From Patellaria atrata CBS 101060 (Eukaryota), in assembly GCA_010093705.1 (NCBI GenBank), contig MU006089.1, forward strand, positions 2,033,561 to 2,097,560: DNA of 64,000 nucleotides, written 5' to 3'. The position numbers were made by a program, and so were the translations under genes. Below are positions 7,967 to 62,520 of this stretch, in pieces. Each line of letters opens with the position of its first letter. Position 1 is the stretch's first letter. Below the pieces are notes generated by a model. It worked only from the letters and a program-made list of their open reading frames with translations. It made no database searches and was not told the origin of the DNA.

Positions 7967-9496
7967 CTACGCATAAAGACTAATGATCTCCTTCTTCTTG
8001 CTCTGCACCTCCGCAATCGCATCGACATAATTCTCGTGATTGATCTTCGACTGCCCGCTCCTCAACGCAATCATACCCGCTTCCACACACACAGCCTTAA
8101 GCTGGGCACCACCGAACTCATCCGTACTCCGTGCCAACTCATTCCAGTTAACTGCCTCATCCACCGTCATCTTCCGACTATGGATCCTGAGAATCTGAGC
8201 ACGTGCCTCTTCGTTGGGAAGCGGGAACTCGATCTTCCTGTCCAGACGGCCTGAACGGAGCAGGGCTGGATCGAGCACATCTACACGGTTGGTGGCGGCG
8301 AGCACTTTGACTCTGTCGTCAGAGGCGAAACCGTCGAGCTGATTGAGTAGCTCCAACATGGTACGTTGGACCTCACGATCACCGGACTTCTCGGAGTCGA
8401 AACGTTTTGTACCAACAGCGTCCAGTTCGTCAATGAAGATGATGGAGGGTGCTTTTTCTTTCGCCAGAGCGAAGCAGTCTCGTACGAGCTTCGCACCGTC
8501 ACCGATGAACATCTGTACGAGTTGAGGTCCGGCGAGCTTGAGGAAAGTAGCATCTGTTTGAGCGGCGCAGGCACGGGCGAGGAGGGTTTTGCCCGTACCG
8601 GGAGGACCATACATCAACGCACCTGTAGATTAAGATTAATAAACTACACTAAGAATATGAGAAGGAACTGGCATTACCCTTAGGTGCCTTGATACCGATC
8701 TTCTTGAAGCGTTCTGCTTCCTTCATCGGCCATACAACAGCCTCTACAAGCTCTTCGATCTGCTTGTCCAGCCCTCCTACATCGGTATACTTCTCTGTTG
8801 GCTTTTCATCAACCTCCATTGCCTTCACTCTGCTGTCGTACTCAGCGGGAAGTGTGTCTAGTACGAGGTAGGAGTCCTTATTAACACCAATGAGATCACC
8901 AGGTTTGAGCTTCTCGTGGTCGACAAGGCCGATGAGGGGAAGGAAGATGGTTTGTCGGGTAGATGTTTTGATAACGGCGGATTTACCAACTCGGGTGGCG
9001 TCAAGGTCGATGTTAGCGCCCTCTTCTACCGCTTCTGCTTCGACGTCTAGATTAAGGATTTCAACGACATTACCCACTAGGTATGGTAGTTGCCTGTAGA
9101 AATTGAATCAGACATCTTTCCGTATTGAATATCGGGCACAGATCACGCCCGTAAAGCATAACCAGCGAGTTCGAACGCATACCTGTTATTTTCTATCTTC
9201 TCCAGATTATCCTTTATCTTCTCTAACATCGTCGCTTTCTCGTGCATTAACCGCTGAAATTCGCTCCTCATGATTCTAGTATCATTCTCTAGTAACCGCC
9301 TCCGAGCAACGATATCTCTTGTGCTTGAGTTAAGGATCTCCTCATCTATGCCATCTTCCTCCTTCTCTTCGGCAGCATCCTTCATGTCTGTATCACCATT
9401 CTGTTCCGACTTCTTTCCATCTTTGTCATCGCCACCTTGCTTCTTCTTGTCCTCGCCTTCGCGCTCGAGATCATCAAGGTCTTCCAGTGTGGACAT
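7967..9496 (-). CDS. RPT5: 26S proteasome regulatory subunit 6A (AAA ATPase), 3 exons
   Basis: N-terminal [26 protein letters not shown], Walker A GPPGTGKT, Walker B IIFIDE, and C-terminal HbYX motif (LYA). Introns at about 9182-9094 and 8677-8623. Confidence 0.96.
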
Positions 9497-23755: not shown

Positions 23756-25565
23756 ATATGGTGTGGATGTGTATAGATGGATCGAAAGATGCCAATTGGA
23801 GGCCTTACTAATCTATTCCTTGGTTCCTGGTGCTTCGAATTAGGTAGTGAGCAGTTTAGGGAGCACGGCGAAGTAGTTCTTAATCTGAAGGGAGGTGGTT
23901 ACTGAAGATATTGTATGTAGTTCCATCGTACTTTTGTAATCCTAGGCGCTAACCTAATTTTACCAGCTCAAGGTAGTGCGATCACGTGGCTTACCTATTT
24001 AGGCTATCCATCCTAATGTAGATTAGACGTCCTCTCAATCTTGAGCCTCAACAAATCTCCCATCACGACAAATGATAACATCTCCTTGTCTTGACATATG
24101 ATGTTAGGCATACCCACAAGTCGTGCGCTGGAGTCTAGCCCTTACAATTAACTCTAGTCTCTTCTTTCCAACCGTGTTTTAGTTGGTAATTATGGATAGC
24201 ATAATAATCGATAGCAGTTGAAGGTCAAGTCATCTTGATACAAGTGCACGACGTAAAACCATTGAGTGGCTCATATTGAGGGACGGAGAGTTCCTATCGC
24301 TACAATGTGGGGAAGCTCGAATTTCAACCTCCATTCCATCAAAGAAAGCTAATGGCCTACAGAATTCTTTGGGTCTATATAAACAACAGGGAGTAAGAGT
24401 TCCCGAGATGTTGCTTCTGGATCGCTTTAAGCTGTGCAAAAAAGACCTGAAAAAGGAAAGAGACTCCGCAATCGATCTCACCTTAAGAGCCTTGCGTCAT
24501 CTCACCCGATTCCTCATAACTTTGATGGAGAAGGTGCAGAATTCAACATATTCCGATTTCTTCTCCATAGACAGTAGATAAAGAGAGGAAACACAACCTC
24601 TGCATCAATCACGACAATGGTGAAGCTCAAAACGAACAATCCAAAACGTATTCAAAGAAAATTAATCCCAAGCGATTCCACGACCAACTATTGTTTCGAT
24701 TGTCCCTCGCAGCGTTTGTACAGTCAATCAGTCATTCATTACAAAGCGTGTGCGTGTACTCTGTGAATATACCATTTCGGCTCTCAAAGCTCTGGTCTAC
24801 AGTGATTGAAGTGCGATTGTGCTGGATTTCTGCATGCATAAAGCTCTTTTTCTTCCAGCTATCATATTCCTTTCACGCCATAATCCCAATATCGATGAAG
24901 GATATTACAAACTGGTACTAGAGTCCTTTCACCCCTATCCTAAAGTCATCATTTCAAATTGAACTACAGAGTACGTTCGCCTCAATCAACGTCATATCCC
25001 CGCCATCGCACACCGACACATCTAACAGTCAAAATTCTAAGGCCACTCAAGCCATAACTACATCAACCTCATCACCCTCATCTTCTTCCAATCTTCGCAT
25101 CCACCTCGAGGGATCGGCGGGCAGGCCTAAAACATACTGTAGCTCTGACACACCATCAGCAGTTGGAATTTCTGCTCAAAGTTTCAACGACGACCCATGA
25201 TGATGATACTATTGTCCTTCCCTGTATTCTACGCCTAGTGGAATAACGTGTCGCTTCGCGAGGAAGAGAGTAGGGGATGTCGCAGTTTTGAGGTCGAAAC
25301 GCTGTTTTTTTTTCTTTTTTTCTTGCTCTCTGATGGGTGTACGGTTCATGTAGAAGTACTAGAGGAATGCATACTGGTGAATTTAGATGTCGAAGAAAGA
25401 GTGAGCCTCCTTCATGAGCAAATACCATTAAAGAATACTAATGTTAAAATCTTAGATCATAACTCATAACTAACTCATCTCCTCTCTGACATCAATTAAG
25501 ACAAACCGTACACGGAAATATCTAAGTCATCCTGAATAATTCCATCATGTGCTATCATTGAATTA

Positions 25566-27762
25566 TTATGGTTGAGCGTAGGGATCCGCAAACTGAAAGT
25601 CTATAGCATGGCCTATCAGGTTTGGAGCAAAAGGTGTACCGGCTACGCCAAAGGCGTCCATATCAGTATCACCTGTCATCCAGACGTCTTGCGATGTAAT
25701 TTCGCCTTTCGCTTGGTCTAATTTCGAAGGGGAAGTTTCCATATTTCTTTGATCATCAGCATGGGCCTCATCCCCACTTTCCCCCGTGGTTTGCGAGTCG
25801 TATTCCCGGCTGTCGGCTGTCTCGGGGGAGAGAACGTTAGAGACAGGTTTCTCTGGGATCGCTCTTATCAAGACGCCTGTTGAGGTGGCCAGAGTGCTAA
25901 TCGCGCGTTCAAGGAAAGGAGCGCTTTTACTTGAAAGCCTGAGTATCCATCGATATTCCTCCAGCTTGTTCTTGTAGAAGTCTGCTTCCTCCTTGTTGGT
26001 TGAAGTTACCCATAAGAGGCTGACAAAGGTACCGATCAGTGCAAAGCAATATCTCGATGCTGAGTACCAGAAAGACTGCAAGTGTTCCGCTCGCAAACCT
26101 TGGACAAAGTCCATTGCGGATATTAAGCGAGCTTTTGCTGCCGCTCTGCAGATGGACACTAGCGACGGATCGCTTTCGTGTGCTAACAGTCGGACAATAC
26201 GTCGATGGAGTGTAATTTCTGCCGTGTAGTATGCCAGGTGGAGATAGCCTGGAAAGAAGTTAGCTAGGTGAAAAGAAGGAAAGTGTCTTTCTCGAGAGCA
26301 TCGGACCTGTTGATGAAAGCTTTCTCATCTTCAAATTTTCCATCTTGAGGCAGTCTGGTAATTGAGCGAACCACTCCTTTAGACGTATCTGTATGGGTTT
26401 AGCTTTCTCTAGGATCCACCTCACACCCTGATGGGCGTTATTGCGGGTCTCTTCTTCTGCTCGTATCGTATAGAATGATGAGAGAATGTCGGACAGTATC
26501 TCTGTCAAGCCAATCATCTGTGAGAAGAGTATGCGTCCCTTTTCGACTTCAGTACTTCCGTCCTCATCGTCTTCATCTGCAGCGTTCTCTGGAAAGTCAC
26601 TCTCAGTCACATGTTTTACTGCCCAGTCGTCCGCAAGTATATGGGAAGGCCGTCCATGTACAAGTGCGGACCATTTATCCTGCATGAATAAAGCCCATGC
26701 TAATCTTTTCCTCAGTCCTCGTTCCCAAGATGGTATTCTCCAACGGGTACAGTCCAGCTGCAAGCCAAGGTCTTGACCCAGACCGACAAGTTTAGTGACA
26801 AGTGCCCAAGAGTCTCCCTCAAAACGCTGAAGTAACAGCAAACCAGCCTGGATTGTGGACAGCTTTGGGCGACAAGTGACATCAGATATCGTCTTTAGAC
26901 CTAATTTTTCCAGACGAGGGACATCGGGCTTTGGTAATAGAGCAAGATCGGAGAAACTCCACCACTGCAACGCAAGAATATATACTGCAGCTAGTAATGG
27001 CGGAGAAAATTCCCTATGAGTTCGCTGGTATTTCTCTAAGTAGACCTTCTTGTGAAGAATGGGAAAGCTGGGGTGAACTATCCGAAAGTACAGAGTGATG
27101 AGTGCATGCCCATGAGGTGCTACGAGGGTTTCAATAGCGTCCAATTCTGTGATCTCGTCTCCATGATTCTGAGTCCCAGCATCTGGAGCGAGAATGAATG
27201 TATCATGCAAGCTTACTTTGCGTAACGATGCAACCCCAGCTGGTATTTCATCCCTGTCGTTGAAAGCATCCAATTCCAGGAGACTATGCTCATATTCGGA
27301 ACTTGAACCGACATACCTACTATGACGATGATTTTGTAGGCCTAATGTCTTCTTCAAGAGGGATGGTCCTTTGAGATCTGCGTAGTTCTCTACTGGAGGA
27401 GCTTGACGAATGACCGATCGGGATGATATTTCAGATATTGCCGTTGCGTCATGGCGTGGAAATGCGGCTCCTGGTGATATCTGAGACACACGGGATGCTT
27501 CGGTTGAAGTATCCTTACGCACATCTTCATCCTCACTGACAATTGGGATCTTCCTCTTACGCGGCCTAGGATTCTCAACGAATGTACAAGGTTGGTAGTG
27601 GAACTGGCAAAGGACACAAGAGCTGGCTCCTTCCGCTATCTCACATCTTGACTTCCTTTTGCGGCAGCTATCGCATGGACGACGAGGACGGGTTTTTGAG
27701 CGGGTGAATTCGGAATGGCTGGAGATCTCGTGCGGTGAAGTAGCCGTATTTAGCTGATCCAT
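25566..27762 (-). CDS. Zn(II)2Cys6 transcription factor, Dal81/TamA-like, 2 exons
   Basis: CDSCRKRKSRC...CVLCQFHYQPCTF, then a fungal-specific TF domain (LYFRIVHPSFPILHK, RPKLSTIQAGLLLLQR, LRKRLAWALFMQDKW). An intron at ~26306-26249 leads to GYLHLAYY. Confidence 0.92.
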
Positions 27763-28054
27763 ATGGCTTGCGTGCAAAAGGGATAAACAGGTGAGGCCAC
27801 CATAGACCTAGACAAAGCTTGTATCCAGCACGGTGGAGACGAATTAGGATGATCTACGTTATGCAGTGATCATCCTTTTGAGCAGGGACGGAACTTTTCA
27901 TGAGCCTCGATTAGAGTTGCTCCTCGTGCTCTTATTATACACAAGACCAACTATTCGTCTTTCCCCAAAGAACCAAATCAACATTGAATGCCACGTGAAG
28001 TAGACGTCATCTGAGGCGTATCCGCACCATTTGAAAGTAGATTTGTTGGTATAA

Positions 28055-28340
28055 AGATGATTTCGACGGTAAGGGATTGACACGATTAAGGAGTAAGGAG
28101 CTGAAGCGAAAATACATCGGGCCTAAACCGCGCCTAAGGAAGGCCGACGGGCGAGGATATTTGATTTTCTATATCTTAACATTATATAAGGAAATAAAAT
28201 TAAATCAATTTTAGAGTAAAATATTATATAATCGACTCAATAAAATAATAGGAATCAGAGTAATATATTTAGAACTATTAATAAATATTTGCCATTCCTA
28301 TCGTAACGCTCTATAATATCTCTCTAGTGCCAGTTATAAG
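28055..28340. repeat. Left arm of degenerate inverted repeat (partner 30960-31275)
   Basis: 28129-28151 is the exact reverse complement of 31179-31201 (23 bp). 28083-28109 matches 31214-31240 at 26/27. Weaker blocks extend both ways. Confidence 0.85.
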
Positions 28341-28537
28341 CATTCAGTAATTGATTAATGATCACAGTACTCGTTGAATAGATAGTCATCGGTTTCATTA
28401 AGGGATTCTAATTTCATACTATTCTACAGCGATGGTAGAGCCAGAGCTTACCTTACAGTGAACAGGAGGGGAACAGAAGTGTACAAAGTGTTCAATTATC
28501 CTTTCAACAAGTAAAACAGCGAGACTCATGTCATATT

Positions 28538-30392
28538 CTAATAAGCTGATTTGACTTCCTTCTCCTTCGCTACCATACCCTTTTCCACGTCAAGGCCTTC
28601 TATCTCCTCCGGAGTGGACGACGCTACATCTCCCTTTTGGGGCGGAAGTACAGCTTCTTCAATGATAGCTTCGCCTAGGGGAGAGATGTATGTGGCGATG
28701 ACGTAGTAAGTTAGAAATGCAAGGGTAAATCCAAAAATCCACGCAAAGGTATAGATGGTCCATGCATCTCCAACATTTAGATCATTGTCGATACTCTTAG
28801 AGAAGCCTGGCATCAGGGGAGCAAATCCGATGATGAATGACGCATATGCACGCCAATTGAAACCATAAGAGTACCAGTATATGCCGTGATCACGGTACAG
28901 CTCGTGGATATTGAGTTTCCTCCTCTTAATGATATAATAGTCACAAATCATTGTGCCGGCAAGGGGACCCATGAGACAAGAATATCCAGAAAGGAATGCC
29001 AGGAGACCAGCAGCATTCTTAATGATGTTCCATGGGGTGGATACTACACAGAATATGGAGATGAACATCGTGGCTCGGAAGATGTTAATGTATTTCGGGT
29101 AGATACCGGTGATATCGTTCGAGAAAGGATAAGTTCCTAGCTAGACTTAGATGTATGTCAAAACTTAGAGCGATATAAGTTCAAGTACCTGCAGCAACCT
29201 GATTACCGATGGTCGCGAGTATAAAAGAGAAACCAGTAAAGAACTTTGCAGCTCGTGAATCAAACATTGCGATCGTAGCTGGCATGTACCATTGAAATTC
29301 TCCCCAAAGATATTGATGTGCAGAGCAAACGAAGATCGGCGTTAATGAACCTAAGGTTCCGATAACGGGTAGAGCAAAAAATTGGTTATAACCAGCCAGA
29401 CGGTTCTTAGAAAATCGTCCAAAATCTGGCATATTGACAGCCATCGAGGAGAAAAGTCCGATGATGACATTGAGTCCAGTAAGAGTAGAAAAGGCAGTGT
29501 TCATGTAAGATGATTGTATCTTCATCTCGCCTTTGACAAGAGGTCCACCACCATGCGTAACTATCACGGCCCACAGGAAGAGTGCTAAGAATGTGGGCGG
29601 GACAATTACACTCTTGACGAGGAACAAAATACGGAGTTTTTCAATAGGCATAAGGGCGAGACCTGTCTGAATTATCCAGTAGAGCATGAAACAGAGAAGA
29701 CCTGCAGATGTCATGCCTGCGTCGAGTGGAAGATGATTCGGAAAGTCTATGAAGCTAGGCCAGATCGCTTCAATACATCGCTGTAGAAATTCGCCGGCTT
29801 GGACTGTCAGAATAGCAGTCCACATGAGAGCGACAAAAGCTGTATAAAACTTAAGTAATGACGATTATGGAGATAGTACGCTAGTTACCAACCTCGAATG
29901 CAGATTGCAATGTAACTACCATACATGCCAAAAACGGAGCGAACAATAACAGGGAAAGGAACAGCGTAGGTAGCACCCATCTTAAAGCACCATGTTAGCG
30001 TAGTCATTTGTAAGTTATCAGATATTATTACCTTTCCAGTGAGTGTTATGACTACACTACATATCATGAAGCCGAAGAAAACAATAGGTATAGTCTCGCG
30101 AGCAGTGAATCCGAGGGACATAACCGTGGCCACAGTACTAGCAAGCGGGGGTGCTAACATATCACTACACCAGTATGCCCAGTAATCAATAGCACCCCAT
30201 GTTCGTTTCTCTGGTGGAATAGGATCAAGATCTTTGCATAAGTAAGTATTTGAGTCGTAGTATCATTATACTCAGGAACATACCCCTATTTGACCATCTC
30301 GGATTCCCGTAAATCCCCCCAACCATAGGAACTTGCCATGTTAGATGAGGAGCAATCTTAGTCTTGATGCGATTAGGTGAGAGAATAGACAT
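28538..30392 (-). CDS. NCS1-family nucleobase/allantoin permease, multi-exon
   Basis: RWSNR|DLDPIPPEKRTWGAIDYWAYW, PFPVIVRSVFGMYG, AVNMPDFGRF, STPWNII, MICDYYIIKR, GFNWRAY. Confidence 0.93.
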
Positions 30393-30959
30393 GCCGCGAA
30401 GTTGGTAGATTGTTGATGATGGTATGGATAACACAAAGTCTTAACTGAATCTTGGAGGCTTTTGAACAATTTCTTGAAACCCAGATCAAAAGAAAGAAGA
30501 GGAGCTGGGGCCCCTTGTTATACACGCTTCCGCCTCCTTGGTTCTGGATATCTCGAGATGATATCAAGTAGATAGATAGATACTCATGTGCAACCAGCTT
30601 CGAGGGAATGCAGCCTGCGGCCTTGAACAATCCAGAGATTTGGAAATCCGGAAGTAGTAGTGTCGTCTAGAATGGAAGATCGTCAGCATATCGCATCCAG
30701 CGTGGGATCTAGATAATCATAATTCAAGGGCCTAGATGTGTATGCTGTACCCTCTCTGGGATGTGACGGATGGAAGCAGCAAATCGAACGAAAACCTTTC
30801 ATGCTGAGGATCTTAAAAGGTTAGCATCTAAGCAAAATGGCTGCAGCTACGGTAGCCCTTGGTTCCCTCTACTGAATGATAAGATGTTTCAAGGGCTACT
30901 GGTGGTTGAAAGTGGAATCTGTGAGATAACTGAGAGCCGCAGGTGCATGGAGTATATCG

Positions 30960-31275
30960 CTTGATTTGCAATGACGGAGAGAGATACAAAACGTCGCCGA
31001 CGATACTGAGTCAGAGATAACAGATATTAACGTTTCGTTCTACCACCCCATTTATTCGTTAGCGAGCCTTATATCTATTCATAGATCCCTTATGTAATAT
31101 GTTATCCTGAGCCTAGTTTTATATTATTTGTTTATATAATATTAAGGTATGGAAAATCTAATCTCTTCGCCCGTCCGCCCCGTCGGCCTTCCTTAGGCGC
31201 GCTCGAGGCCGGCTCGCTTCAGCTCCTTTCTCCTTAATCGGTCTACATTTGCAACCCTTTACCGTCAAAATCATG
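30960..31275. repeat. Right arm of degenerate inverted repeat (partner 28055-28340)
   Basis: Core CCCGTCGGCCTTCCTTAGGCGCG (31179-31201) and TCGCTTCAGCTCCTTTCTCCTTAATCG (31214-31240) are reverse complements of the left arm. Confidence 0.85.
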
Positions 31276-31439
31276 AACAAAATAAACAATAGTCGGCCCA
31301 AATTTCAAACTGTAGAATTCAATTGTCCATTGAGGGTGCTAACTTCATCGTTGGGTTCTCAACACTCAATCTCGTATCCTAGACTTCCAAAGTTGTCCAT
31401 ACTTCCATCTTTTATTCAAGACCTTCAATCTTGCAAACT

Positions 31440-33706
31440 ATGGCTATCAAAGGACAATGTACCATTGATGCAAAGCCGTATCCATTTACCTTTCCTTTGA
31501 AACACACAGCCCTACTTGTCATCGACATGCAAAGAGACTTCCTGCTGAAGTCCGGTTTTGGCGAGATACAGGGCGGGAATCTTGAAGCAGTTCAAGCATC
31601 AATTGTTCCCACGAGAAAGTTGCTTGACGCTTGCAGAAATGCTGGTCTGGCAATCTTTCATACACGAGAAGGCCATGTACCTGATCTCGCGGATTGTCCG
31701 TCCTCAAAACTTATCAGACAAGGTGCTGCACCTAACAACTCCCAACACAGTCTTGTCATTGGAGACAAAGGGGAAATGGGTCGCTTACTAGTCCGAGGAG
31801 AATATGGACATGACTTGGTAGATGAGCTTACCCCGTATCCTAGCGAAGTGGTGATCGACAAGCCCGGTAAAGGGTCCTTCTGGAATACAGATATAATGCA
31901 TAAACTGAAAGCTCGGGGAATAACACACCTGATTGTGAGTGGTGTAACAACTGAGTGTTGCTTCGCCACTTCCATCCGAGAAGCAAACGATCGGGGATTC
32001 GAATGCTGTAAGAGATCTCAGGCCCTATAGTAAACAATTACTGATCCGAGAAATAAGGCGGAATTGAGGATGCTACAGCCGGTTACAATTCAGACTTCAA
32101 GTCTCAATCTCTTGACATGATACACTGGTCTCAGGGACTATTTGGTTTCGTTGCTCCTTTACAACCACTTTTAGATGCTCTTTTGCCTTTGACCGGTACT
32201 AAACCGTCTGGTTTGACACCTCCACAAACACCTCCAGAATGGGATGGGGATTTACGAATCACTAGTCTTCAAGCAGCTTACAAGTCAGGTCTGTCTCCAG
32301 TGACAGTTGCGGAGGCTGTTTACACGAAGATCGAAGCCTATCGAGAATCCGACCCTGCTGTCTGGATCCACCTAGAGAGTAAGGATGATGTAATAGCATC
32401 AGCGAGATTACTGAGCAGTAGATTTCCAGACCGCGAGAAGCTCCCTGCACTATTTGGCATACCATTCAGTATCAAAGATTCAATCGATATTTCCGGGCTT
32501 CCGACCACGACCGCATGTCCGCCATTAGCGCATATACCAACAGCCTCAGCCCCTGTCTATACAAAACTGATAGAAGGAGGTGGATTGTTTATCGGGAAAA
32601 CCAATCTGGACCAACTAGCGACGGGCTTGACTGGCTGTAGAAGCCCATATGGCATTACTCATTCAGTCTTTCATAAGGATTACATATCAGGGGGTTCTTC
32701 TAGTGGCAATGCGGTGAGCGTGGGCGCTAATCTGGTATCTTTTTCTATCGCCACAGATACTGCGGGTTCCGGGAGAGTACCTTCTGGACTAAACGGAGTA
32801 GTGGGATATAAGCCCACACGAGGTCTTATCTCATTTGTCGGTACTACTCCAGCTTGCTTATCGCTCGATTGTATCGCAATCATCGCAAAAAATGTCGAAG
32901 ATGCTCGGTTGGTATGGCAAATGGTCGAAGGGTACGATGGCAATGATCCATATGCGAAGCCGGCCATTGCATTTGAGCGGCATATAAACTCAATCGGGCC
33001 GCAAGCAACCGCCTTTAAGTTTGGTATCCCGCCGCAAGATGTATTGGAAGTGTGTTCACCAATCTACCGAAAACGTTTCAATGAGATTGTTCAAAGACTT
33101 CAAAAGATGGGAGGTAAGTTGACTCGAATTGACTGGACACCTTTCCAGAAGGCGGGTGATCTTCTTTACAATGGAACATTTGTTTCGGAGCGTCTTGCGA
33201 GTCTCCCTGATGGCTGGCTTGAGAAAAATAGAAACTATCTGCATCCCGTCATCTTGCGGATATTTGAGGATGTTATCAAACGTCGGAGTACCGCAGTAGA
33301 TGCTTATCGAGACTTGCAGGCCAAGGCGTTATACACTCGTCAAGCAGAAGTGGTATTTGCTCCCACAGCAGCTGGCGTAGACGTCCTTGTAGTACCGACA
33401 ACTCCAACACACTGGAAAATTGATGAGGTACTTAAAGACCCTATTCGGTTAAATAGCATTAATGGTACATTTACTCACTTTGGTAATGTACTGGATCTTT
33501 GCGCCGTTGCAGTACCAGCTGGTAGATATGATGTATCCGAACTCTCAGGCGTGGAAACTGATAAAGGCTCACTTCCTTTCAGTATCACATTCCTTGGAGG
33601 TAGTAGAATGGACGCAGAGGTGCTTCGAATTGCTTTACAATTTCAAGACAGTTTGCATGAGGGAGATGGAAAGGGCAATAGAGGGTATGAATCCCATCCC
33701 TTTTAA
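31440..33706 (+). CDS. Fusion protein: isochorismatase-like (triuret/biuret hydrolase-type) cysteine hydrolase + allophanate-hydrolase-type amidase, ~738 aa, 2 exons
   Basis: Exon 1 has IDMQRDF, HTREGH, DKPGKGSF and GVTTECC...REANDRG (D-K-C triad). A 50-nt intron at 32008-32057 (GTAAGA...CTGAT...AAG) joins it in frame to the amidase signature: IKDSID, GKTNLDQLATG, GGSSSG, TDTAGSGRVP, LLYNGTFVSER. Confidence 0.9.
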
Positions 33707-34368
33707 TGCATTGGCGAACCAAATATAGATATACTGGGAGAGTTTACATTAATAAGAATGATCATATGCCACTAGACAAAACTTTCAGCGTGAATATGTT
33801 GTAATTTGTTGGAAATGAGAGAATAGTAACAGTAGGGAGTACAGTACTGTACCTGAATAGTAGGCTAATGTTCTTAGAGACATCAGAACTGATCTACTCA
33901 AATACTGCCCGCAAGATAGGCTTCCTAGCATCTAGACATCCCAGACTTAGCAGGAGTCATAAGTGTCCACTGTTCTTTTGATGAATCCTAGTAGTGGAGA
34001 AAGGGTTCAAGGGGTTCCTGATATAATGCCCGGGTTGCGGCCGGTAAAACCACGGCGTATTCTTGGAGACGCCATTTCATCGTGGAACTTTTGATTCTTA
34101 TTCAAGAATAATCAGCTCTTATTTTCTCCCTTTCACATTTCAACCGTTAATCTTCCCAGAAAATCAATTTTACAAAAGAGACACCTATCATTCCCATTCT
34201 CCAGCTCTATACCACCTCCACAGACCTCGAAGCTACCGTCGAATAAACGCTACGATCTGATCTTTTCGCGCCACCTCACAAGTCCACAGCTATACATACA
34301 GTTGAATCTCGTGATCTAAGTGGACTTTCCCGGGAGTAGGGCGTTAGGGGCTTTGGTATATACACATA

Positions 34369-35162
34369 ATGGGGGTCTTCCAGTCCATGCTGTCGAAACT
34401 GTGGTCTAAAAAGGAGATAAGGATATTGATATTAGGTCTTGTATGTCTAGTGACCGGTTTTGGTTTACATACAGATAAAGGCCGTAACAGAATGCTAATG
34501 CTTGCATATAGGATAATGCTGGCAAAACAACTCTGCTCTACCGTCTGAAGGTAGAACTTTACCCTTGAGATTCGACCTATCAGCTCCAGGTGCTAATCCG
34601 CTTTGCTCTATACAGATTGGTGAGGTTGTTTCGACAATACCTACTATAGGCTTCAACGTCGAATCGGTGACATACAAGAACTTAAATTTCAACGTGTGGG
34701 TACGTCTTATATCACGGCTATAGCTTTGAAACCTCCAATGGCCTGGCTAACACCAAACTCAAATAGGACCTAGGTGGTCAAACATCTATTAGACCATACT
34801 GGCGTTGCTATTATGCAAACACTGCTGCTGTTATATTCGTGATTGACTCTACCGATATCGACCGGCTGGAAACAGCATCTGAAGAGCTCTCTGCCATGCT
34901 GAATGAGGAAGAACTTCGAGATGCGGCATTATTAGTATTCGCGAACAAACAAGACCAGCCTGGTGCAAAGGGCGCAGGCGAAATCTCTGAGGCGCTGAAG
35001 CTCGCAGATTTGAAAGATCGGAACTGGAGTATAGTGGCTTGTTCAGCAATAGATGGGAGTGGCGTTCAAGAAGGAATGGACTGGATGGTGGTAAGTTCAA
35101 TTAACCATTTTGCATGGATTCCACTAATTCGTCTTGAGTCTACGGTGTCCGAGAATACATAG
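34369..35162 (+). CDS. ARL1: ADP-ribosylation factor-like GTPase 1, multi-exon
   Basis: MG...[41 protein letters not shown]...[22 protein letters not shown], and FANKQD. These are Arl1-diagnostic motifs. Confidence 0.95.
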
Positions 35163-35465
35163 TGCATCTACTATAACCTTACAAATGCCACGTATAGATG
35201 CATCTGAGGAGAATGCAAATGTCGCAATACTTTCTCCTGAAACCATAATATTGAACAAATTCCCATTTTCGAGAAAATCACTGAATGCTGGTTCCTTTCT
35301 TCGTATTCTCCACCATTTAAGATACCCTATCCAAGTTCAAAGTTTATCATGCGGGTAGTGTGTCAAATGCGGCTAATAATATCCGATTCGATATGTACAT
35401 ATATAGAGGTGGTTCACTGCCCGCAAACTGCACCAAAGTTCGACTAGTAAATATTTCTTCTCAAT

Positions 35466-36395: not shown

Positions 36396-37273
36396 CTAAC
36401 AATTCCAGCCCCCATCAATGCTACATGACTGGCCAGTGATAAAATTAGATTCGTTCGAGAGCAGAAATATAATCAGATGTGCAACTTCTTGTGGCTGTCC
36501 CTGGCGGGCCAGTGCCACACTTTTTATCCACGTATCCCTTTTGGAGCCACTCCCCGCAGCATTCGCTGTAGCTTGAGCACCAGCATTCATTGGCGTTTCA
36601 ATGACGCCCCTATATATGTAAGTGATTATTCGCAGGAACAGGTGTTTGGAATACCTACGGGCTGACGCAGTTCACCCTGACATTTCGTTTCCCAACCTCC
36701 TTTGCCGCCGACTTCGTAAGACCTATCACACCCTAGGTTCTTATTAGCTAGGAGTACACCCGACGGCCCATCTCAACTCACATGTTTACTCGCTGAATAC
36801 GCAGCACTATTCGGCCTCCCTATCAACCCAGCTATACTCGCCGCATTCACTACACTCCCCCCATCCTCAATAACCTTCAACTGCGCCCTCATACAATGCA
36901 TCAGCCCCGTAAGGTTGACCCCAATGATCAGCTCCCACTCATCTTCCGGCAAATCTGTCAGTGGGCACACCCCAATAAGCTTCCCGACAACTCCAGCTAG
37001 ATTTGCACAGCCGTCAAGCCGTCCGAATTTGTCGATTGTAGACTTAATCCAGCGGTCCACGTCTTCTGTTGAGCGTACCTCGACAACGCAACCTATGACC
37101 TCAGCGGAGAATTCGGTTTGGATGGCTTTAACGGCTTCATCCAGGGACTCTTTACGGTTATCGGCGAGGGAGAGTTTTGCGCCGCGACTGGCCAGGAGCT
37201 TTGCTGTTGAGAAGCCGATCCCTGAGGCTCCACCGGTGAGTGCGATGACTTTTCCTTTGATTGAATCAGTCAT
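36396..37273 (-). CDS. Classical short-chain dehydrogenase/reductase, 3 exons
   Basis: TGGASGIG, NLAG, VNAAS, YSASKH (YxxxK), RVNCVSP, ITGQSCSIDGGW. Confidence 0.93.
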
Positions 37274-37730
37274 GGTAGTATATGGGCGTATTGCAGCAGT
37301 TGTATATATTATATTCGAGGCGTATTGTAGCTGTTGTTGTAACGGGCGGGGTATATCAGGTATGTAGGGAAGAAAGGAGAGTACAGTTAAATTAGGGAGC
37401 CACAGGCTGATATAACTTCAGCAGGTCTCCACAAAGATCCACAAGTCCATAGTCTTAGACGGATATTGAACTCCGCTAGGGCCATAATACCGAAAGAGCG
37501 TAATTCGACGGTTGTCATCTGCTTTACGAGTATCGAGAGATCAGGGAGACAGGAGCACCAAGTTTCAATAAAAGCTCGAAAAGATTACGGGCATCAATAT
37601 GGCTCTGTTAAGGTATCCCCTTATTATGATACGGACACCAATGGAACATTAATATGGCTACATTCTAATATAGAAGCATCTAGTTCGAGATCTTGCAACA
37701 TTGCTAATATTACTTTGGTGTAAAGCACAC

Positions 37731-39827
37731 TTAAACTCTACCACGCTCTAGGAACTTCTTTGGGATGGGTACTAGTTTCGCCCTGCGAGTTATTAGCAAA
37801 CTGCACCCTAACCACTAGCGAGCGGTTTCCTACCTGAGATATTCACAAAGATTTTTAGCCAGAGTATCCAACTTTGACCCCGAATTATAACCCCTATCTA
37901 AGTGATTCTTCAGTAAGAAGTGGACCGCCCGGATATTGAACATCTCAAATCTATCGATCTTACCCCCCGAATAGTCTGCAGGTCCCAATAGCTCTTTGAT
38001 CTTCTCTATCGTTAGGAACGTCTTCAACCAATCGTACTCATCGTCTCGCCGCACGAAGAATCCGACGTTCGCATCAGAGGCTTTGTCACCGGAACGACCC
38101 AGGACAACGTAACCAAGAGGAGCGAGTTCGGCGTCCCCAAATGACTCCAGGGGGACCGGGGTCTTTGTGTTGGACGAGTTTTGCTCTGGATACTGTTTGG
38201 TGGTCTTAGGAGGAGAGATGTTAGTGATCTTTCTGTCTCCGAAGAGACAGTGCACGCGATGGTTGCAAGCTGACTGAGGCATTAGCGTTACGAAATACTC
38301 AAAGTATGACTTCGCCGTTGACTGCCGCAAGTCATTACTCCTAGACACCCCCTATCTTCGTTAGAAATTGACCATTCAACTCTCAGGGGAAGAACCCACT
38401 GGACAAGACTGTAAAACTATTTCGTACAACTTTCTACTAAAGCCATCTGGTAAACTCGGGTTGAACATCTCTGGATCTGGCGACTGAGCAAATATTCGGA
38501 AATCTACAGTAGCCGCTTCTTGGGTTGGTGCGTTGATCGGTGAAGTGCCATGCAGATGGAACTTGAGTAAAGAGAACTTCTTCATTAGGTCCTCTCCTAT
38601 AGCTGCCCGAGCCTGCTCCTCCATCCATTGACACTTCTCCTCCATGTCTAGTCCAACCAGGTAGAAATGCCACTCCGCTTGATACCCACCATGAGCGGTT
38701 ATGCCGGTCCTTGTTGTTGCAGGTGGTGCAGAGCCGATTATTCCTGTAACTTTAACTCGGTCTTCGCCAACGGTTTCCAGTTTCACATTTTCGAGATGCG
38801 CAACAACGTCCGAATTGAAGTACCACGGGCCAGAAATCTCATAGACTAGCTGTGATATTACTGTTTCTGTGTTGACCACGCCGCCTGTGTTCTTCTCTTT
38901 AGCAATTACACATACCCCAGTATGGTCGACCTCTGCGATGGGGAATCCGATGTTTATATGCTTCTTAGCTTTCATCAGGTCTTTGAAACCGCTATAATAG
39001 CCACCTAGTTGAAATCAGCAGATGTTCTTTCCATACATATCTCAAGGGATATACCAGTTATGAACACGCTGCACTCAATCAGATGGCCTGCTATGAGCGC
39101 ACCCGCAAGCTCTTCGAATTGATCATTTTCCCAGCCATGCCACCAGCTTGATCCCGCAATAGTCAGTTACTAGGTCATTTTATTTGCAAAGGGAGCGTGC
39201 TCACGTAGATAACCCTATAGTAGGAGCAGCATCAGAGACTCTTCCGGCAATTACTATATCAGCCCCTTGTCTGAAAGCTTCTGCAATTCCTAAACTCCCT
39301 AGATATGCTTGGGCGCAAATCGGATCGAATCCCCACTCTTTCAATGTTCGGCCATCCGTCAAACTCGTAAAGGTGTTACCATCTGCGACCATTTGTTTGA
39401 ACGCGTCCGTAACATCGTCCCCTTCCACCCACACAACTTTCAAATCATGCCCTGCATCTTTAATCATCTTTTGGCATACCTCCGCGAGGAGTTCCGTGTC
39501 GCTAGCGCCTGCGTTCACAGCTAATTTCGTGCCGTTCTTCGCAATTTCATCTATCGCTGGCTCGAAGCATTGCAGAAAGGTGCTGGCATAATTCGCGGTT
39601 TTCATTCGCTCTTCAAGTGTTTTGCTGCCCTCAGTGCTTTGGTTCTTCCTGGCTCGTTGCTTCCCTGCGCCATATCCTGTCATGACATTTTCGGAAAGCC
39701 AATCGCCAACGACAGCATCAACTTCAGGGTCACTTGCTAATCGTCGTATACCTGCAACACGATCTGTGAAGCCACCAGATGCACCACCAATCCTAATAGG
39801 ACGTTTAGGCTCTGTGTTTGGTGGCAT
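37731..39827 (-). CDS. DUF1446 / acyclic terpene utilization AtuA-family protein, multi-exon
   Basis: RPIRIGGASGGFTDR, GDWLSE, AVNAG, AYLG, GRVSDAA, GHLIECS, SQLVYEISGPWYFNSDV, and C-terminal GRSGDKASDANVGFF...LDTLAKNLCEYLR. Confidence 0.92.
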
Positions 39828-40566
39828 TATGGATCTCAGGGGAACCGTTTATGGTCTTACAACACAGGTGAAAACTGATAACAGTTTTATGTCTAGGTAG
39901 CGGATGCAGGCGTCTATAACAGCATTAATTGGCCTGAAGAGGTATTTACTCAAATCAGTGAAATCATAAATCTGAGCGACATGACTCCCACTGTTAAAGC
40001 CATGTGAGAGAACATTTTCTCGACTTTTGATTTAGATCTAGAGGTTTGAAAAACAGTAAATTCCGAAAGTTCCTGAAGCCGGATGAAGTCTGCAGTGAGC
40101 TTACGGCAATGCGCACCCGGATGACTCCAGCTTCAAATACTCATAATTTTGTTGAAGACCAAACCTAGTGACGTTCAAGAACGGTTGTCAATCCAGAGTT
40201 TTAGTCGGAACGCTAATGATTCACTAGAGACAAGAGTATTTTTCCACATCAAGCTTCCCCTCAAACAACGGGCGTCCGTTAAGCTTTCCCGAAGAAATTG
40301 GGGCTCTAAGGCGAGAATAAGCAAGACTACTAATCATTTGGGGCTAGTCGTGGCTCAATTCTCGTCCTCTGCAATGTCGTGTTAGGAGATGTTTGACTGA
40401 CCGATATGCGAGTATGGGATAACGGGGATAAGAGAAATATCAACAGGAGCTATAAAGCATGATCCAGATATAACCCTAGTGCTCTCCCAAGACTGTGGAG
40501 CTCCTGCAAAGTCTACAAAAGGCCCTCAGATACTACTAGATCTCCACGGATTCCTGGGTCGTCATC

Positions 40567-42512
40567 ATGTTGTCGACAGAAGAGAAAGAGCAACATACTA
40601 CACAGGTAGAGCAAGTCACTACCAATGATGCTTCAACCCAAGATGCGGACGAGCCTGACGCAGAGATCACATTCAAGACCAAGATGGCTATTCTAGTAAG
40701 ATTGATAAGTTTTTGGTCTCGATTGGGTATTGTGCTGACGTGAATATAGTCTCTGATCCTAATGTACGAATCCTACCTGTTTACTTTGATTATGCCGGCT
40801 GCGGTGTTAGCATATATCAATGCGGACCTGGGACCAGATCCCAACTACGCTTGGATTTCTATCACATGGGTAAGATTTTAGCCCGCTAATACGCCTGTAA
40901 TGCTCCAAGCTTACAGAGAACAGAACCTTGGAGCTGCTATCATTGTTACAGTAGGGGGCCGTCTTGCCGACATCTTTGGGAGAAGATGGTTCCTACTTTT
41001 CGGATCCATATCGGCCGCAATAGGAGCACTGGTCGGGGTAACCGGGCAGAGTATTCCGCAAATGATAGTTAGCGGCGTAATCTTCGGTATCGGAGGCGGT
41101 TTTCAGGAGATGTGTTTCGCTTGTGCCCAAGAGTTAGTACCGAACAAATGGCGGTTTGCAACTTTAGGTGAGTATATCAGTACATCCAAATGCAGGTGTA
41201 TCTAATTTTGAGAATAGGTGTCATGATCATGGCAAATCACTTCTCCTCAATATCTCCCATCCTCGGTTATGTCTTCATCACTTATACAGGGATCGGTTGG
41301 AGAGCTTGTTACTGGTGGTGCTTCTCCTTCGAGGTGCTCACAACTATCCTGCTCTTTTTCTTCTATGATCCTCCAAGCTTCCGTACTAAGCATGAAGATG
41401 ACCACAAGACAAAGATTCAGCTACTCCTTGAGCTGGACCACGTCGGACTCTTCCTTTTCGTGGCTTCATGCTTATTGCTTCTGCTCGGACTGAGCTGGGG
41501 CGGTGGTCTTCGTCCATGGAAAAGCCCGGCGGTAATAGCACCAATCGTCATTGCTGTTGTGGGTTTCGTCGCACTTGGATTCTGGGAGGTGTGCGCGAAT
41601 CTGAAGTACCCCATCTTACCGCCGAAGCTTTTCCGCAAATGGCGCGAGTTCACTGCTCTACTAGTAGTCTGTTTCGTAGCCGGGATGTTATATTACAGCA
41701 TGAATGTGCTGTGGCCTCGCCAGTCTAGCCTCCTTTTCATTCCTGCAGGCGATACCATCATCCGTGGCGTCTATGCTAATATGGTGTCCTTTGGAACTGT
41801 TATCGCAGGTTGGTATTGTATTGGTGTTATGCCTTGGGTTGGTCATGAGCGAATACAGCTTATCTGCTTCATGATTGGACAGACAGCCCTTATTGGATCT
41901 CTCTCGAGCGTAGGAATCGAAGACAAAGCTCAGGCCATTGCAACGGTCATCATTGTCTCTGCTCTTAACTTGCCACCGTCGCCGTTATCCTTTGGTATGG
42001 TGAGCTTAGGACTCGACGATCAGGCAGATATGTATGCTTAAACCCTTAACTCCTACATTCAAGCCTAACTTTATTTCAGTGGGGTGGCAGTTGGCCTAAT
42101 CAGCACATTCCGTTTGATTGGCGGTGCAGTGGCGACGGCTATCTATACCTCGATATATACCAGTCGATTCTCAAAATTGATGCCCGGCAAGGTTACAGAT
42201 GCAGTGGAGGAAATTGGATACGATGGACCGATCCCAGACCTTTTGCGCGCTGCCTCTCTCAATACTGCAGCAGCTTACGCTACCCTCGAAGGCGTGAGTT
42301 CGGAAGTACTAGCTACGGTCCAATTAGCAGTAAAGCAAGCATATGTGGAATCTTTCAGACTCGTATATCTTGTAGCAATTGCGTTCGGTGTCTGCGCGAT
42401 CTCCGCAGCAATTTCAACAAGGAGTGTTGATGTCAAGAAGAAGTCTAATGAACGTGCGGTTCAACTCGAAACTGAGATGAAATCTCATCGCCATCATAAA
42501 GAGGAGGCATAA
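40567..42512 (+). CDS. MFS transporter, TRI12-like fungal efflux pump family, multi-exon
   Basis: INADLGPD, VGGRLADIFGRRWF, ELVPNKWR, GWRACYW, FYDPPSF, LDHVGLFLF, AYVESFRLVYLVAIAFG. Confidence 0.92.
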
Positions 42513-43949: not shown

Positions 43950-44540
43950 AATTCCTTCTAAATATTTAGGCACCTTCCATATACTCGACCGTGATAAGGG
44001 TTAGATTGATCGTTGCGCCTTGTATATAACTTCGAAACCGGAAAATGTGGCCACGTAATTGTGCTTGTAGGCGAACACTGGGTTTGTAGGGGTATGACAT
44101 CGTAACCCTCAGCCGGTTTCCGCCCCCATTCCTGCCGTGCGATGATTTGGTGCTCCTGCAATGCAGTCAGTCGATCAGCTATAACGTACGATACAGTTAC
44201 ATTGTTGTTGATTTGTATTTCAGGAAAAGTTGGAGCCTCCTGCGAAGACTACTCAGCCTCGCTGCGTTGTCAGGCAGCTACATAAAGCTACATAAAGTCA
44301 AGAAGAGTACTGGGGTGTTCGTTTCACTTGGGAAGATGGCAAAATCTACAGTATTTATTATGTAGTGAGCGAGCCAAAGCTCATGATATGATACTTGTAT
44401 AATCTTCCTAACACCCACCAGAGCTTTAGTTCTACAGTAAGTTAACCGTTGTCGAGTGTCGATCTTTAGCTAGAACTAGTTCTATAACGAGTATAATCTA
44501 ACCCTGGCTTGGGCTGCCCTTAGCTCTCTCTCTCTCCTCC

Positions 44541-46283
44541 ATGGCAGGTCCTCGATCTTTCGGAAACCCGTTATTGTATCGAAATTGGAACAACATCCTG
44601 CAATGCATCGAGGTCAAGGGAACAAAACAACTGAAAATAAGAGGAAACTATACAATACCATCTAGAACTATATCCTCCAACCAACGACGTCCGTACCAGA
44701 CGGATACTCTAGACTCGAAGAATACAGCTCGAACGAGTCGACTATGGGCTCTTGCAGTATCATTACCTCTATTTGCTGGCGTATGGTTCTATACAAATTT
44801 AGATAACCACAGCGACAAGTATAATTCACTACAATTGCTGTCTTCCTCGGATATCGTTCGCTCGCTCAACGAGCAACTACAGGAAAAGGAAAAAGAGGCG
44901 TTGAGTATCAAGGCAAAGCTTATTAGCTTAGAAAATGAGCGGAAAAGTTTGCAAGACCAAGTCAAGACTGGGGAGGAGAAGCTGAAGGAACTCGGTGCTG
45001 AATTTGCACTCAAAACTGAGGAGATCAAACAATCTGCAGCAACTATAAGCTCAAGTCAACAACGAGTACATGAACTTTCAAATCAGACAAACCAAGACGC
45101 TCAAAGAATCCAAAGTCTCAGCAACGACCTCGAGGCGAAATCAGTAGCCAATAAAGATCAAGAGGAGCAGCTGCAAAACGAGAAATATCAAAAAGCTCAA
45201 CTCGAAAAGGATATAGAAAGCAAGACCGCGTCGATTAACAGCTTACAAGCGTCGAACAGTACCTTATTTGATCGGACCCGGGTCCTTCATACGCTGGCTC
45301 TAAACCTCCTTACAACCCCCAACTTGCACGACTTAGTAAGCCTAGAGAAGGAATATATAGAAGCTCATCCTATTGAGCTTCCCAACAACCGCAGTCTGAC
45401 GGCCGAGGCCGTAAATCTCTTCCGGTTGGTTGACGCCGAGGGTAAAACACGTGCTCTCATTCTTGAGCGCGTAGGGGACGACAATAAGGACCTCGAGGAA
45501 GCTAATGCACTAATGGCATGGGTCTCCGAACGTACGCGTTCCCTTCTCGCCGCGAACCAGCTCAGCAAAAATGGGTTCGCCGGGCTCATATACTCCGAAA
45601 ATTGGTTCGGTATGGGCGACATGATCTCACCACTGCGGGTATGGGACCGCAGTATCCTGCCCTCGATCAAAGAGCGTATCAAAGCACATACTTCTAAGAG
45701 TGGGAAAACTAAGACTCTGGCCGACATCTTACCGGGCAGTGTCCCACGTCCGGGTTATCATCGCGCACTGGTGAGAGCGAAATTGTACCCTCACCAAAAG
45801 CTAGATACAGAAGGTACAGATGTCATGGTTGACACGGGAGCGTCGGTGACGTTGATAGACCGCAGTTTGATCCCACCGGACAATGCCACTGTCCTACGAT
45901 TGAGCGTACCGGTGACACTTGCTGGGTTTAACGGATCTATGTCGACGGTCAGTGAAGTGGTACAGTTGACCCTCACCATCGAAGGCGAACGGGGTGAGAG
46001 TGGTAGGGCTTCTACTGAGATCAACACCTTAGCGTATGTGATGGATGGTCTGGGGACCAAGCTAATCCTAGGGTTAGACACGCTGGGGAGAGCGGAGGCG
46101 ACAGTCGATGTAGGGAAACGAACTCTAAGGATCAAAGACACAGTAGCTCCCTTGGACTTCGAAGCAGTTGCTCAAAAGCCCGAGGTGCCGGTCCCGATAG
46201 GCCCAGAAGCTACACCTGGTGCCGGTGAAGGAGACGGAAGAGTAACAAGTGAAGAGGGAAATATTCCTACCAAGCAAGGATAG
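44541..46283 (+). CDS. Chimeric protein: basic presequence-like N-terminus, TM helix, coiled coil, C-terminal retropepsin-like aspartic protease
   Basis: Intact 580-aa ORF with TM segment LWALAVSLPLFAGVWFY and a heptad-rich Q/E/K region. Protease motifs VMVDTGASVTLID (D at 45831), VTLAGFNG and LILGLDTL. Confidence 0.8.
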   Translation: MAGPRSFGNPLLYRNWNNILQCIEVKGTKQLKIRGNYTIPSRTISSNQRRPYQTDTLDSKNTARTSRLWALAVSLPLFAGVWFYTNLDNHSDKYNSLQLLSSSDIVRSLNEQLQEKEKEALSIKAKLISLENERKSLQDQVKTGEEKLKELGAEFALKTEEIKQSAATISSSQQRVHELSNQTNQDAQRIQSLSNDLEAKSVANKDQEEQLQNEKYQKAQLEKDIESKTASINSLQASNSTLFDRTRVLHTLALNLLTTPNLHDLVSLEKEYIEAHPIELPNNRSLTAEAVNLFRLVDAEGKTRALILERVGDDNKDLEEANALMAWVSERTRSLLAANQLSKNGFAGLIYSENWFGMGDMISPLRVWDRSILPSIKERIKAHTSKSGKTKTLADILPGSVPRPGYHRALVRAKLYPHQKLDTEGTDVMVDTGASVTLIDRSLIPPDNATVLRLSVPVTLAGFNGSMSTVSEVVQLTLTIEGERGESGRASTEINTLAYVMDGLGTKLILGLDTLGRAEATVDVGKRTLRIKDTVAPLDFEAVAQKPEVPVPIGPEATPGAGEGDGRVTSEEGNIPTKQG

Positions 46284-62052: not shown

Positions 62053-62520
62053 CAAGATTTATTTTTGGTCATGTGCTTAACGGTTAGTAGAAGGAGAGAT
62101 TGCTATAAGTATCTAAAATCTCAGTGAAAAATCTCGAAGATCCAGACTATAAGGTTCTTTTTTGGGTGAAGTTGTGGAAGTTCAGTTTCTCTGGAGACGT
62201 GGTTAGAGGTAACGTGACTCTATTTTCCATCACGCTTCCAGAAAACTGAACTTTATACTACCTCACCTAAAAATTTCATATTGCATACCAATCTTCGAGA
62301 TTTCTCGAGGAGATTATAGATAACTATTTAAGCAAATGACCAAAAAAAAAAAAGAAAAATCACGCTCTTTCTAAGAACGTCTCAAGGACTATTTCATACC
62401 AAGATCGATACGAAAGATGTCCGTGCACGTAACCTAAGCATATCCTAGATCTTAGCATAAAAAGAATTTTAGTCCTTTGAAAACGTCAAGATTTTTTTTG
62501 GTCATTGGCTTAGAAAGAAG
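62053..62520. repeat. Compound degenerate foldback (MITE-like) element
   Basis: Nested inverted blocks centred near 62213, plus a second hairpin at 62328-62515 that shares the TAAGCAAATGACCAAAAA module. Confidence 0.7.

Follow-up and report, generated by a model that had tools for sequence, protein, structure and literature searches.

Which nitrogen compound is served by three adjacent genes of the fungus Patellaria atrata CBS 101060 that encode a Zn2Cys6 transcription factor, an NCS1 permease and a two-domain fusion hydrolase? The genes lie in a stretch of 64,000 nucleotides (assembly GCA_010093705.1, contig MU006089.1, positions 2,033,561 to 2,097,560 of the forward strand), which was analysed as a whole and is referred to as the window. 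The first-pass annotation had described them as a self-contained module for a ureide, with triuret or biuret as substrate and import of the allantoin/uracil type; the linked genes, the fusion and the probable family of the regulator support the module, whereas the case for that substrate and that type of import is weakened. The cluster probably lets fungi use a small urea-like nitrogen compound. The best explanation, held at about even confidence, is that the genes form an inducible module of import, hydrolysis and regulation that serves an open-chain acyl-urea (R-CO-NH-CO-NH2) and not, or not mainly, triuret or biuret. Judged from its residues, it would be a known type of ureide-hydrolase system with shifted specificity in both the enzyme and the transporter. 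The features are as follows:

25566..27762, minus strand: gene of the Zn2Cys6 transcription factor, 712 amino acids (exons 27762-26307 and 26248-25566; start codon inferred).
26306-26249, minus strand: intron of the factor gene, the sole intron of its splice model.
28538..30392, minus strand: gene of the NCS1 permease, 548 amino acids (exons 30392-30284, 30231-30032, 29980-29893, 29839-29189 and 29136-28538).
30393..31439: intergenic region of 1047 bp between the divergent permease and hydrolase genes.
31440..33706, plus strand: gene of the fusion hydrolase, 738 amino acids (one 50-nt intron, 32008-32057; Pfam Isochorismatase and Amidase).
Residues ~8-232 of the fusion hydrolase: N-domain, TrtA-type cysteine hydrolase (Asp29, Lys141, Cys174).
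Residues ~255-725 of the fusion hydrolase: C-domain, allophanate-hydrolase amidase (Lys329, Ser403/404, Ser427, Tyr560, Arg568).

All three genes are confirmed to be present and intact at this place: six-frame reading, Pfam matches and splice models gave no internal stop in the 712-, 548- and 738-residue models. The arrangement first annotated, with permease and hydrolase diverging from a region of about 1 kb, was recovered with 1047 bp between the two genes, and the gene identities, including the two-domain fusion, were borne out by Pfam domains, splice models and identical database proteins. The hydrolase model agrees letter for letter with database protein P0001 and the permease model with P0241, and the factor model contains the partial database factor P0121 (591 amino acids); all three entries carry the source label Patellaria atrata. 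The factor has a six-Cys zinc cluster from residue 30 (pattern scan) and a Pfam Fungal_trans domain (E 3e-29), and the permease, encoded by five exons, matches Pfam Transp_cyt_pur (PF02133). Positions 24500-35200 are covered by two public runs without listed differences and without splice joints; the reads look like DNA, and the runs may be the window's own source. An Arf-family GTPase gene (34370-35162) follows right after the cluster and marks its right edge.

Linkage was tested on three lists of homologues, which comprised the best 120 of 695, the best 120 of 2049 and a full set of 90: the scaffold-length column was compared for rows with a named fungus, those of Patellaria atrata being left out. 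The same scaffold length, which does not by itself mean adjacency (nine matches were on scaffolds <500 kb), was found for factor and hydrolase in 25 of the 27 species present in both lists, for hydrolase and permease in 17 of 18, for factor and permease in 18 of 22, and for all three genes in 12 of 13 species; the mismatches were mostly clusters of several isolates. All three accessions are consecutive in Zopfia (KAF2191318-20) and Aulographum (KAF1987179-81), and those of factor and hydrolase are two apart in Lindgomyces. Factor and permease are adjacent in Ilyonectria, Dactylonectria, Parathielavia and Trichoglossum, as are hydrolase and permease in Rhinocladiella, Elasticomyces and one Pleosporales isolate, so that consecutive accessions span Dothideo-, Eurotio-, Sordario- and Geoglossomycetes. 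Among five close metagenome loci, L005 shows the same gene order, L002 and L004 have a divergent permease, and L001 carries the factor downstream of the hydrolase. More distant fusions occur in Geopyxis, Clonostachys, Aspergillus californicus, the basidiomycete Meredithblackwellia and, as a domain relative, the yeast Dipodascopsis; in Geopyxis and Meredithblackwellia a related permease lies on a scaffold of the same length as the fusion. The synteny check suggested earlier thus found the orthologues linked in other fungi and, because the linkage recurs, the cluster is not a product of chance. It is real, widely conserved and apparently uncharacterised; no description of the three-gene cluster was found in the literature searched, a search that lay apart from the key family survey (Robinson 2018), which may mention fungal fusions. 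One database model from Pyrenula (P0305, 853 amino acids, NCS1 plus Fungal_trans) is probably a merged annotation of two adjacent cluster genes.

The N-domain was compared with sequences from the PDB, and TrtA (6XIX, 220 bits) scored above BiuH (175 bits) and RutB (89 bits), by which an identity as RutB was rejected. Residues were counted in 113 fungal homologues (the best 120 listed minus seven double-domain proteins that are not fusions). The TrtA triad Asp24-Lys129-Cys162 corresponds to Asp29, Lys141 and Cys174 of the fusion, and TrtA Phe29, Glu72 and Lys132 to Phe34, Glu77 and Lys144, each in 113/113. The substrate-binding Gln202 of TrtA is replaced by Ser214 in all 113, within an ungapped stretch of the alignment, and Asn41 by Gly46 in 112. 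Three further exchanges are found in every homologue, namely Ile205 to Leu217, Leu39 to a new invariant Gln44, and Ala201 to Trp, and a Gln stands one position after the site equivalent to Gln202 in 109 of the 113. The BiuH signature (Tyr/Tyr/Asp/Thr/Val at TrtA positions 35/41/160/187/205, plus Gln215) is absent from the N-domain at each of these positions; a Ser at TrtA A134 is the only tested BiuH signature residue that is shared. The chemistry of the N-domain would accordingly resemble that of TrtA and BiuH, yet a defining feature of each is missing. With Gln202 and Asn41 lost and the BiuH residues missing except for that Ser, the triuret or biuret substrate proposed at first becomes less convincing: TrtA Gln202 binds the substrate, and each of the exchanges Q202E, N41Y, F35Y and Y187T leaves <10% activity (PMC7948467, available in part).

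When 88 domains were placed in a quick tree, the 24 from fungal fusions came together in a single clade (SH-aLRT 99) with two subgroups, on the TrtA side and apart from BiuH and algal TrtA. No bacterial member of this clade was seen in 80 genome loci among the matches listed. The new Gln occurs in 9 of the 207 domain matches listed, every one in a fungal-type locus. Algal double-domain TrtA/BiuH proteins were considered as a source of the fungal domain and set aside, since they branch elsewhere (in the quick tree only). Double cysteine-hydrolase proteins of algae and bacteria (BiuH+TrtA or TrtA+TrtA; P0012, P0081, P0086, P0090, P0091, P0043 and P0066) stand separate from the fungal clade. Another divergent, intron-containing fusion type is found in L006 (4128-6476) and L007, with Ser-Asp at the Gln202 region and no permease or factor match within the contig.

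The foremost alternative is a fungal triuret/biuret pathway, in which Gln44 on the lid helix would replace Gln202, the N-domain would deaminate triuret and/or biuret, and the amidase would take allophanate and perhaps, like AtzE, carboxybiuret; a single protein would then do the work of TrtA, BiuH and AtzF. This main rival to an acyl-urea substrate is credible, though we consider it rather unlikely. TrtA is the closest solved relative and its Phe35, Glu160 and Tyr187 are kept; biuret would yield allophanate directly, which suits the fusion; among the loci listed for bacterial relatives, 46 of 156 have at least two hydrolase matches and 38 an amidase; and triuret metabolism is said to be present in some fungi, fusions going unmentioned in the available part of that source (PMC7948467). 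Gln202 and Asn41 are lost, however, whereas the full TrtA pattern is found in 145 and the full BiuH pattern in 44 of the 207 domain matches listed (on 160 loci); the BiuH model NF050097 scores 216 bits on the fusion against a cut-off of 370, and the cluster has neither a BiuH nor a TrtB partner. The trtA-biuH-atzF operon of Herbaspirillum BH-1, as far as it is described in the same partly available source (PMC7948467), shares with the fungal cluster the two enzyme families, the catalytic triads, Phe35/Glu160/Tyr187 and linkage to a transporter. It differs in that the fungal cluster has a single cysteine hydrolase where the operon has two; the fungal one forms a fusion with the amidase and has Gln202, Asn41, Leu39, Ala201 and Ile205 replaced. 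The fungal cluster also has an NCS1 permease and a Zn2Cys6 factor, and no trtB was seen in it.

The best PDB sequence matches of the C-domain are 4GYR/4CP8 (331 bits). A structure model of the fusion hydrolase (pLDDT 87) gave allophanate hydrolases as the best Foldseek matches, with the amidase-signature fold superimposed on 4GYS at TM 0.92. The residues of the Ser-cisSer-Lys triad (Lys329, Ser403, Ser404, Ser427) are present in 86/86 full-length homologues, as are Tyr560 and Arg568, which align with Tyr299/Arg307 of the Granulibacter allophanate hydrolase, a pair that we take to bind the substrate. Fixed changes near the amidase pocket are Ser331, Cys383 and His663. The NCBIfam allophanate-hydrolase scores are under the cut-off (445 against 487 and 414 against 511), with profile positions 6-452 of 600 covered, and the C-terminal domain of full-length AtzF is lacking. 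AtzF reduced to its amidase domain remains active, and its substrates are allophanate, malonamate and biuret (PMC3944691, available in part). Assignments to GatA and AtzE were ruled out on scores, and comparison of the proteins with the ESM Atlas returned generic names only. The C-domain is thus like AtzF and the amidase domain of the urea amidolyase Dur1,2 in its amidase-signature fold, its Ser-cisSer-Lys triad and its Tyr and Arg; unlike these, it has an N-terminal cysteine hydrolase instead of urea carboxylase as fusion partner, no C-terminal domain, and the exchanges Ser331, Cys383 and His663.

Many Dothideomycetes have a urea carboxylase and a stand-alone amidase in place of urea amidolyase (Strope et al. 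2011, PMC3073912, available in part), in line with the independence from urea amidolyase that had been claimed. The amidases of that study are very likely the same genes (PTRG_11638 and SNOT_08324), matched by locus number, not by sequence; the parts of the paper at hand treat the gene as a stand-alone amidase and mention no isochorismatase domain, permease or factor. This distribution, together with the intact active site, would also suit a role in housekeeping or repair, in which the amidase is the missing allophanate hydrolase for an unlinked urea carboxylase and the N-domain clears internal carbamoyl by-products, with no scavenging of external nitrogen. We regard such a role as improbable: urea carboxylase and amidase lie on different scaffolds, some species have the amidase without the carboxylase or the reverse (PMC3073912), and the conserved permease dedicated to the cluster suggests that the substrate comes from outside.

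The permease belongs to NCS1 by its PF02133 domain, its match to Mhp1 and its TIGR00800 hit (E 1e-84, though under the cut-off); it is also below the cut-offs of the allantoin-permease models, which are bacterial. In an alignment of 70 close homologues to Mhp1, Asn318 is replaced by Gly350 (Gly in 67/70) and Gln121 by Leu143 (Leu in 66/70), Trp117 is kept in 65/70, and Gly219-Trp220 has become Leu-Phe in the permease. The Asn is kept in the distant NCS1 rows P0325-P0327 and in the L010 permease of the same alignment, and the changed motif is common to the basidiomycete relatives. Asn318 has been called completely conserved, and its mutation abolishes uptake; Fui1 also has Leu at the Gln121 position (PMC4195764, available in part). 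The permease is thus like the fungal NCS1 proteins (Fur4/Dal4/Fui1, FurA-E) and Mhp1 in PF02133 and Trp117, and it differs from them by Asn318 to Gly, Gln121 to Leu and Gly219-Trp220 to Leu-Phe. Because the ring-binding Asn318 and Gln121 of Mhp1 are replaced, a ring-shaped nucleobase or allantoin appears an unlikely cargo, and the allantoin/uracil-type import first suggested loses ground.

All three pockets examined in the hydrolase and the permease differ from those of characterised proteins, and relatives at 45-65% identity within the family differ in substrate (PMC9800807). A substrate other than an acyl-urea, for example an amidine, an N-carbamoyl amino acid or a plant or microbial amide that the cluster detoxifies, is accordingly conceivable but has little probability: RutB is far more distant than TrtA, the amidase domain is clearly of the allophanate-hydrolase type, and the factor probably comes from a nitrogen-regulator family.

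A full zinc cluster is also present in 104 of 119 factor homologues among the matches listed, and 4 of the 120 listed are named 'nitrogen regulatory protein OTam'. PTRG_11636 of Pyrenophora tritici-repentis is grouped with AN2944 (TamA) and YIR023W (Dal81) (PMC3998117 supplement, available in part) and lies two loci from PTRG_11638, the stand-alone amidase (PMC3073912 supplement); the cluster factor is tied to this orthogroup by locus number only. Seven Dothideomycete columns of the orthogroup table hold two members of the TamA/Dal81 group (PMC3998117). In Stagonospora the listed SNOT_04741 is far from the amidase SNOT_08324, and another factor, SNOT_08327, is near it. By locus number, the cluster factor is probably a second TamA/Dal81 paralogue bound to the cluster, and with TamA (Aspergillus nidulans) and Dal81 (Saccharomyces cerevisiae) it shares the Zn2Cys6 and Fungal_trans domains. 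TamA and Dal81 are broad co-activators for which the literature consulted, available in part, reports no such cluster, whereas the apparent paralogue is tied to catabolic genes. Since Dal81 roles differ between yeasts, the allophanate-induction role not being conserved even in Candida (PMC5853489, available in part), family membership says little about the inducer: the family assignment of the first-pass annotation is probable, and its argument from Dal81 function is weakened. An identity of the factor with TamA, the global co-activator, standing beside the other genes by inherited synteny and without specific regulation of them, is very improbable, for although PTRG_11636 is listed as the TamA orthologue two loci from PTRG_11638, two group members occur in the seven columns, SNOT_08327 and not SNOT_04741 is near the amidase, and the factor stays with the hydrolase through a rearrangement (L001) and in a paralogous cluster (L010).

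The two promoter regions of the Patellaria atrata cluster share a duplicated block:

28057..28324, minus strand: promoter block copy 1, upstream of the factor gene (core GCCGACGG at 28143-28150).
30977..31274, plus strand: promoter block copy 2, upstream of the hydrolase gene (core GCCGACGG at 31180-31187).

The copies, about 270 bp each, flank the permease gene and are identical at 200 of 257 aligned bases (78%); their alignment scores 182, whereas 200 shuffles reached 46 at most and 289 random window pairs 55 at most. They are inverted in the genome, yet have the same orientation relative to their respective downstream genes, and consist of a GC-rich core containing GCCGACGG and an AT-rich part. 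A transposon altered by repeat-induced point mutation (RIP) was not favoured as an origin: transitions make up only 25 of the 57 differences, the RIP indices lie close to 1, and neither the window nor 160 loci showed a third copy. Within the window, GCCGACGG occurs in the two copies only, and it is found in the promoters of 5/6 loci. The looser form GCCGNCGG is present in all six; the cluster promoters have 9 sites in 6.8 kb, whereas fungal DNA from elsewhere has 4 in 90 kb. The motif was chosen after the fact from the same promoters in which it was counted. It is a candidate site, of the form CCG-N-CGG, at which the factor would act, and may also serve autoregulation. The 1047-bp region also holds six HGATAR sites, a bare count that was given no weight.

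A paralogous cluster (L010, 2700-12181; the same in L011) comprises a related factor (47-55% identity), a different NCS1 permease (34-37%, with the Asn kept), a second-type fusion (47%) and a 2OG-Fe(II) dioxygenase (8121-9233), an addition that hints at an oxidative upstream step. This cluster, the duplicated block and the recurring GCCGNCGG core are new here.

In the acyl-urea module that we prefer, the compound would be taken up by the NCS1 variant, and Cys174, with Asp29 and Lys141, would remove the terminal NH2 as ammonia and leave an N-carboxy-amide, by homology to TrtA. Directly or after loss of CO2, this product would be an allophanate-like amide-carboxylate, which Ser427 of the C-domain may hydrolyse with release of a second ammonia, by homology to AtzF, an enzyme that also accepts malonamate. 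GCCGNCGG sites are where the TamA/Dal81-family factor is predicted to activate the genes; in Patellaria atrata the duplicated block would let it act on its own gene as well. Oxalurate, ureidomalonate and similar products that form when the rings of oxidised nucleobases open, and that end in a carboxylate, are the leading candidates, and reasonable ones given the loss of the amide-binding Gln, the retention of the Tyr/Arg pair and the acceptance of malonamate.

Several points weigh against this explanation. The TrtA consensus residues Phe35, Glu160 and Tyr187 are kept as Phe40 (113/113), Glu172 (113/113) and Tyr199 (112/113), which fits triuret; Gln44 could stand in for Gln202; the BiuH mutant Q215A is not fully dead (PMC7948467); and the Gln at TrtA position 202 is kept in some type-2 relatives (L010, P0383, P0391). 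The candidate substrates were named by chemical reasoning alone. As to linkage, metagenome locus L003 has no partner gene within 13 kb, factor and hydrolase are 11 accessions apart in Coniochaeta, and factor and permease of Lineolata are on scaffolds of different length, which looks like a true split. As to regulation, besides the choice of GCCGNCGG after the fact, an 8-mer common to 5/6 loci arose in 8/300 shuffles and 17/300 control draws.

A wider proposal, possible rather than probable, is that of an old, undescribed fungal pathway that breaks down some ureide abundant in nature, which probably derives from oxidised nucleobases. Enzyme, transporter and regulator of this pathway would have changed specificity together, and the clustered paralogue would keep the ancestral, pathway-specific role of allophanate sensing, with GCCGNCGG as its site. 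The pathway would extend across the filamentous fungi, and related forms occur in basidiomycetes and in an early-branching yeast. If the module is borne out, a new fungal nitrogen source would be named, the orphan 'stand-alone amidase' of Dothideomycetes would gain a function, an NCS1 subfamily without the otherwise conserved Asn would be defined, and light would be shed on how Dal81/TamA became general co-activators. The locus bears on where triuret/biuret-type hydrolases come from in nature and what they are for: in at least four ascomycete classes, among soil, lichen and plant-associated fungi, a eukaryotic branch whose pocket has been rebuilt stays together with its own transporter and regulator. 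The three-gene module is readily testable, consisting of a single protein, a permease, a factor and a short motif.

Elsewhere in the window, a short-chain dehydrogenase, an AtuA-family gene (37830-39848) and a TRI12-like MFS transporter adjoin at 36773-42041 and may form a small catabolic cluster. A 593-residue open frame at 44502-46283 has a weak, retroviral-like aspartyl protease match below the Pfam cut-off. Pfam matches between 5677 and 61511 comprise ferric reductase, AAA ATPase, GH65, Mcp1, tyrosinase, a metallo-beta-lactamase fold, FMN dehydrogenase and an MFS transporter. Two short inverted repeat pairs at 62105-62517 (37- and 26-nt arms, ~145 nt apart) are possibly remnants of small transposons.

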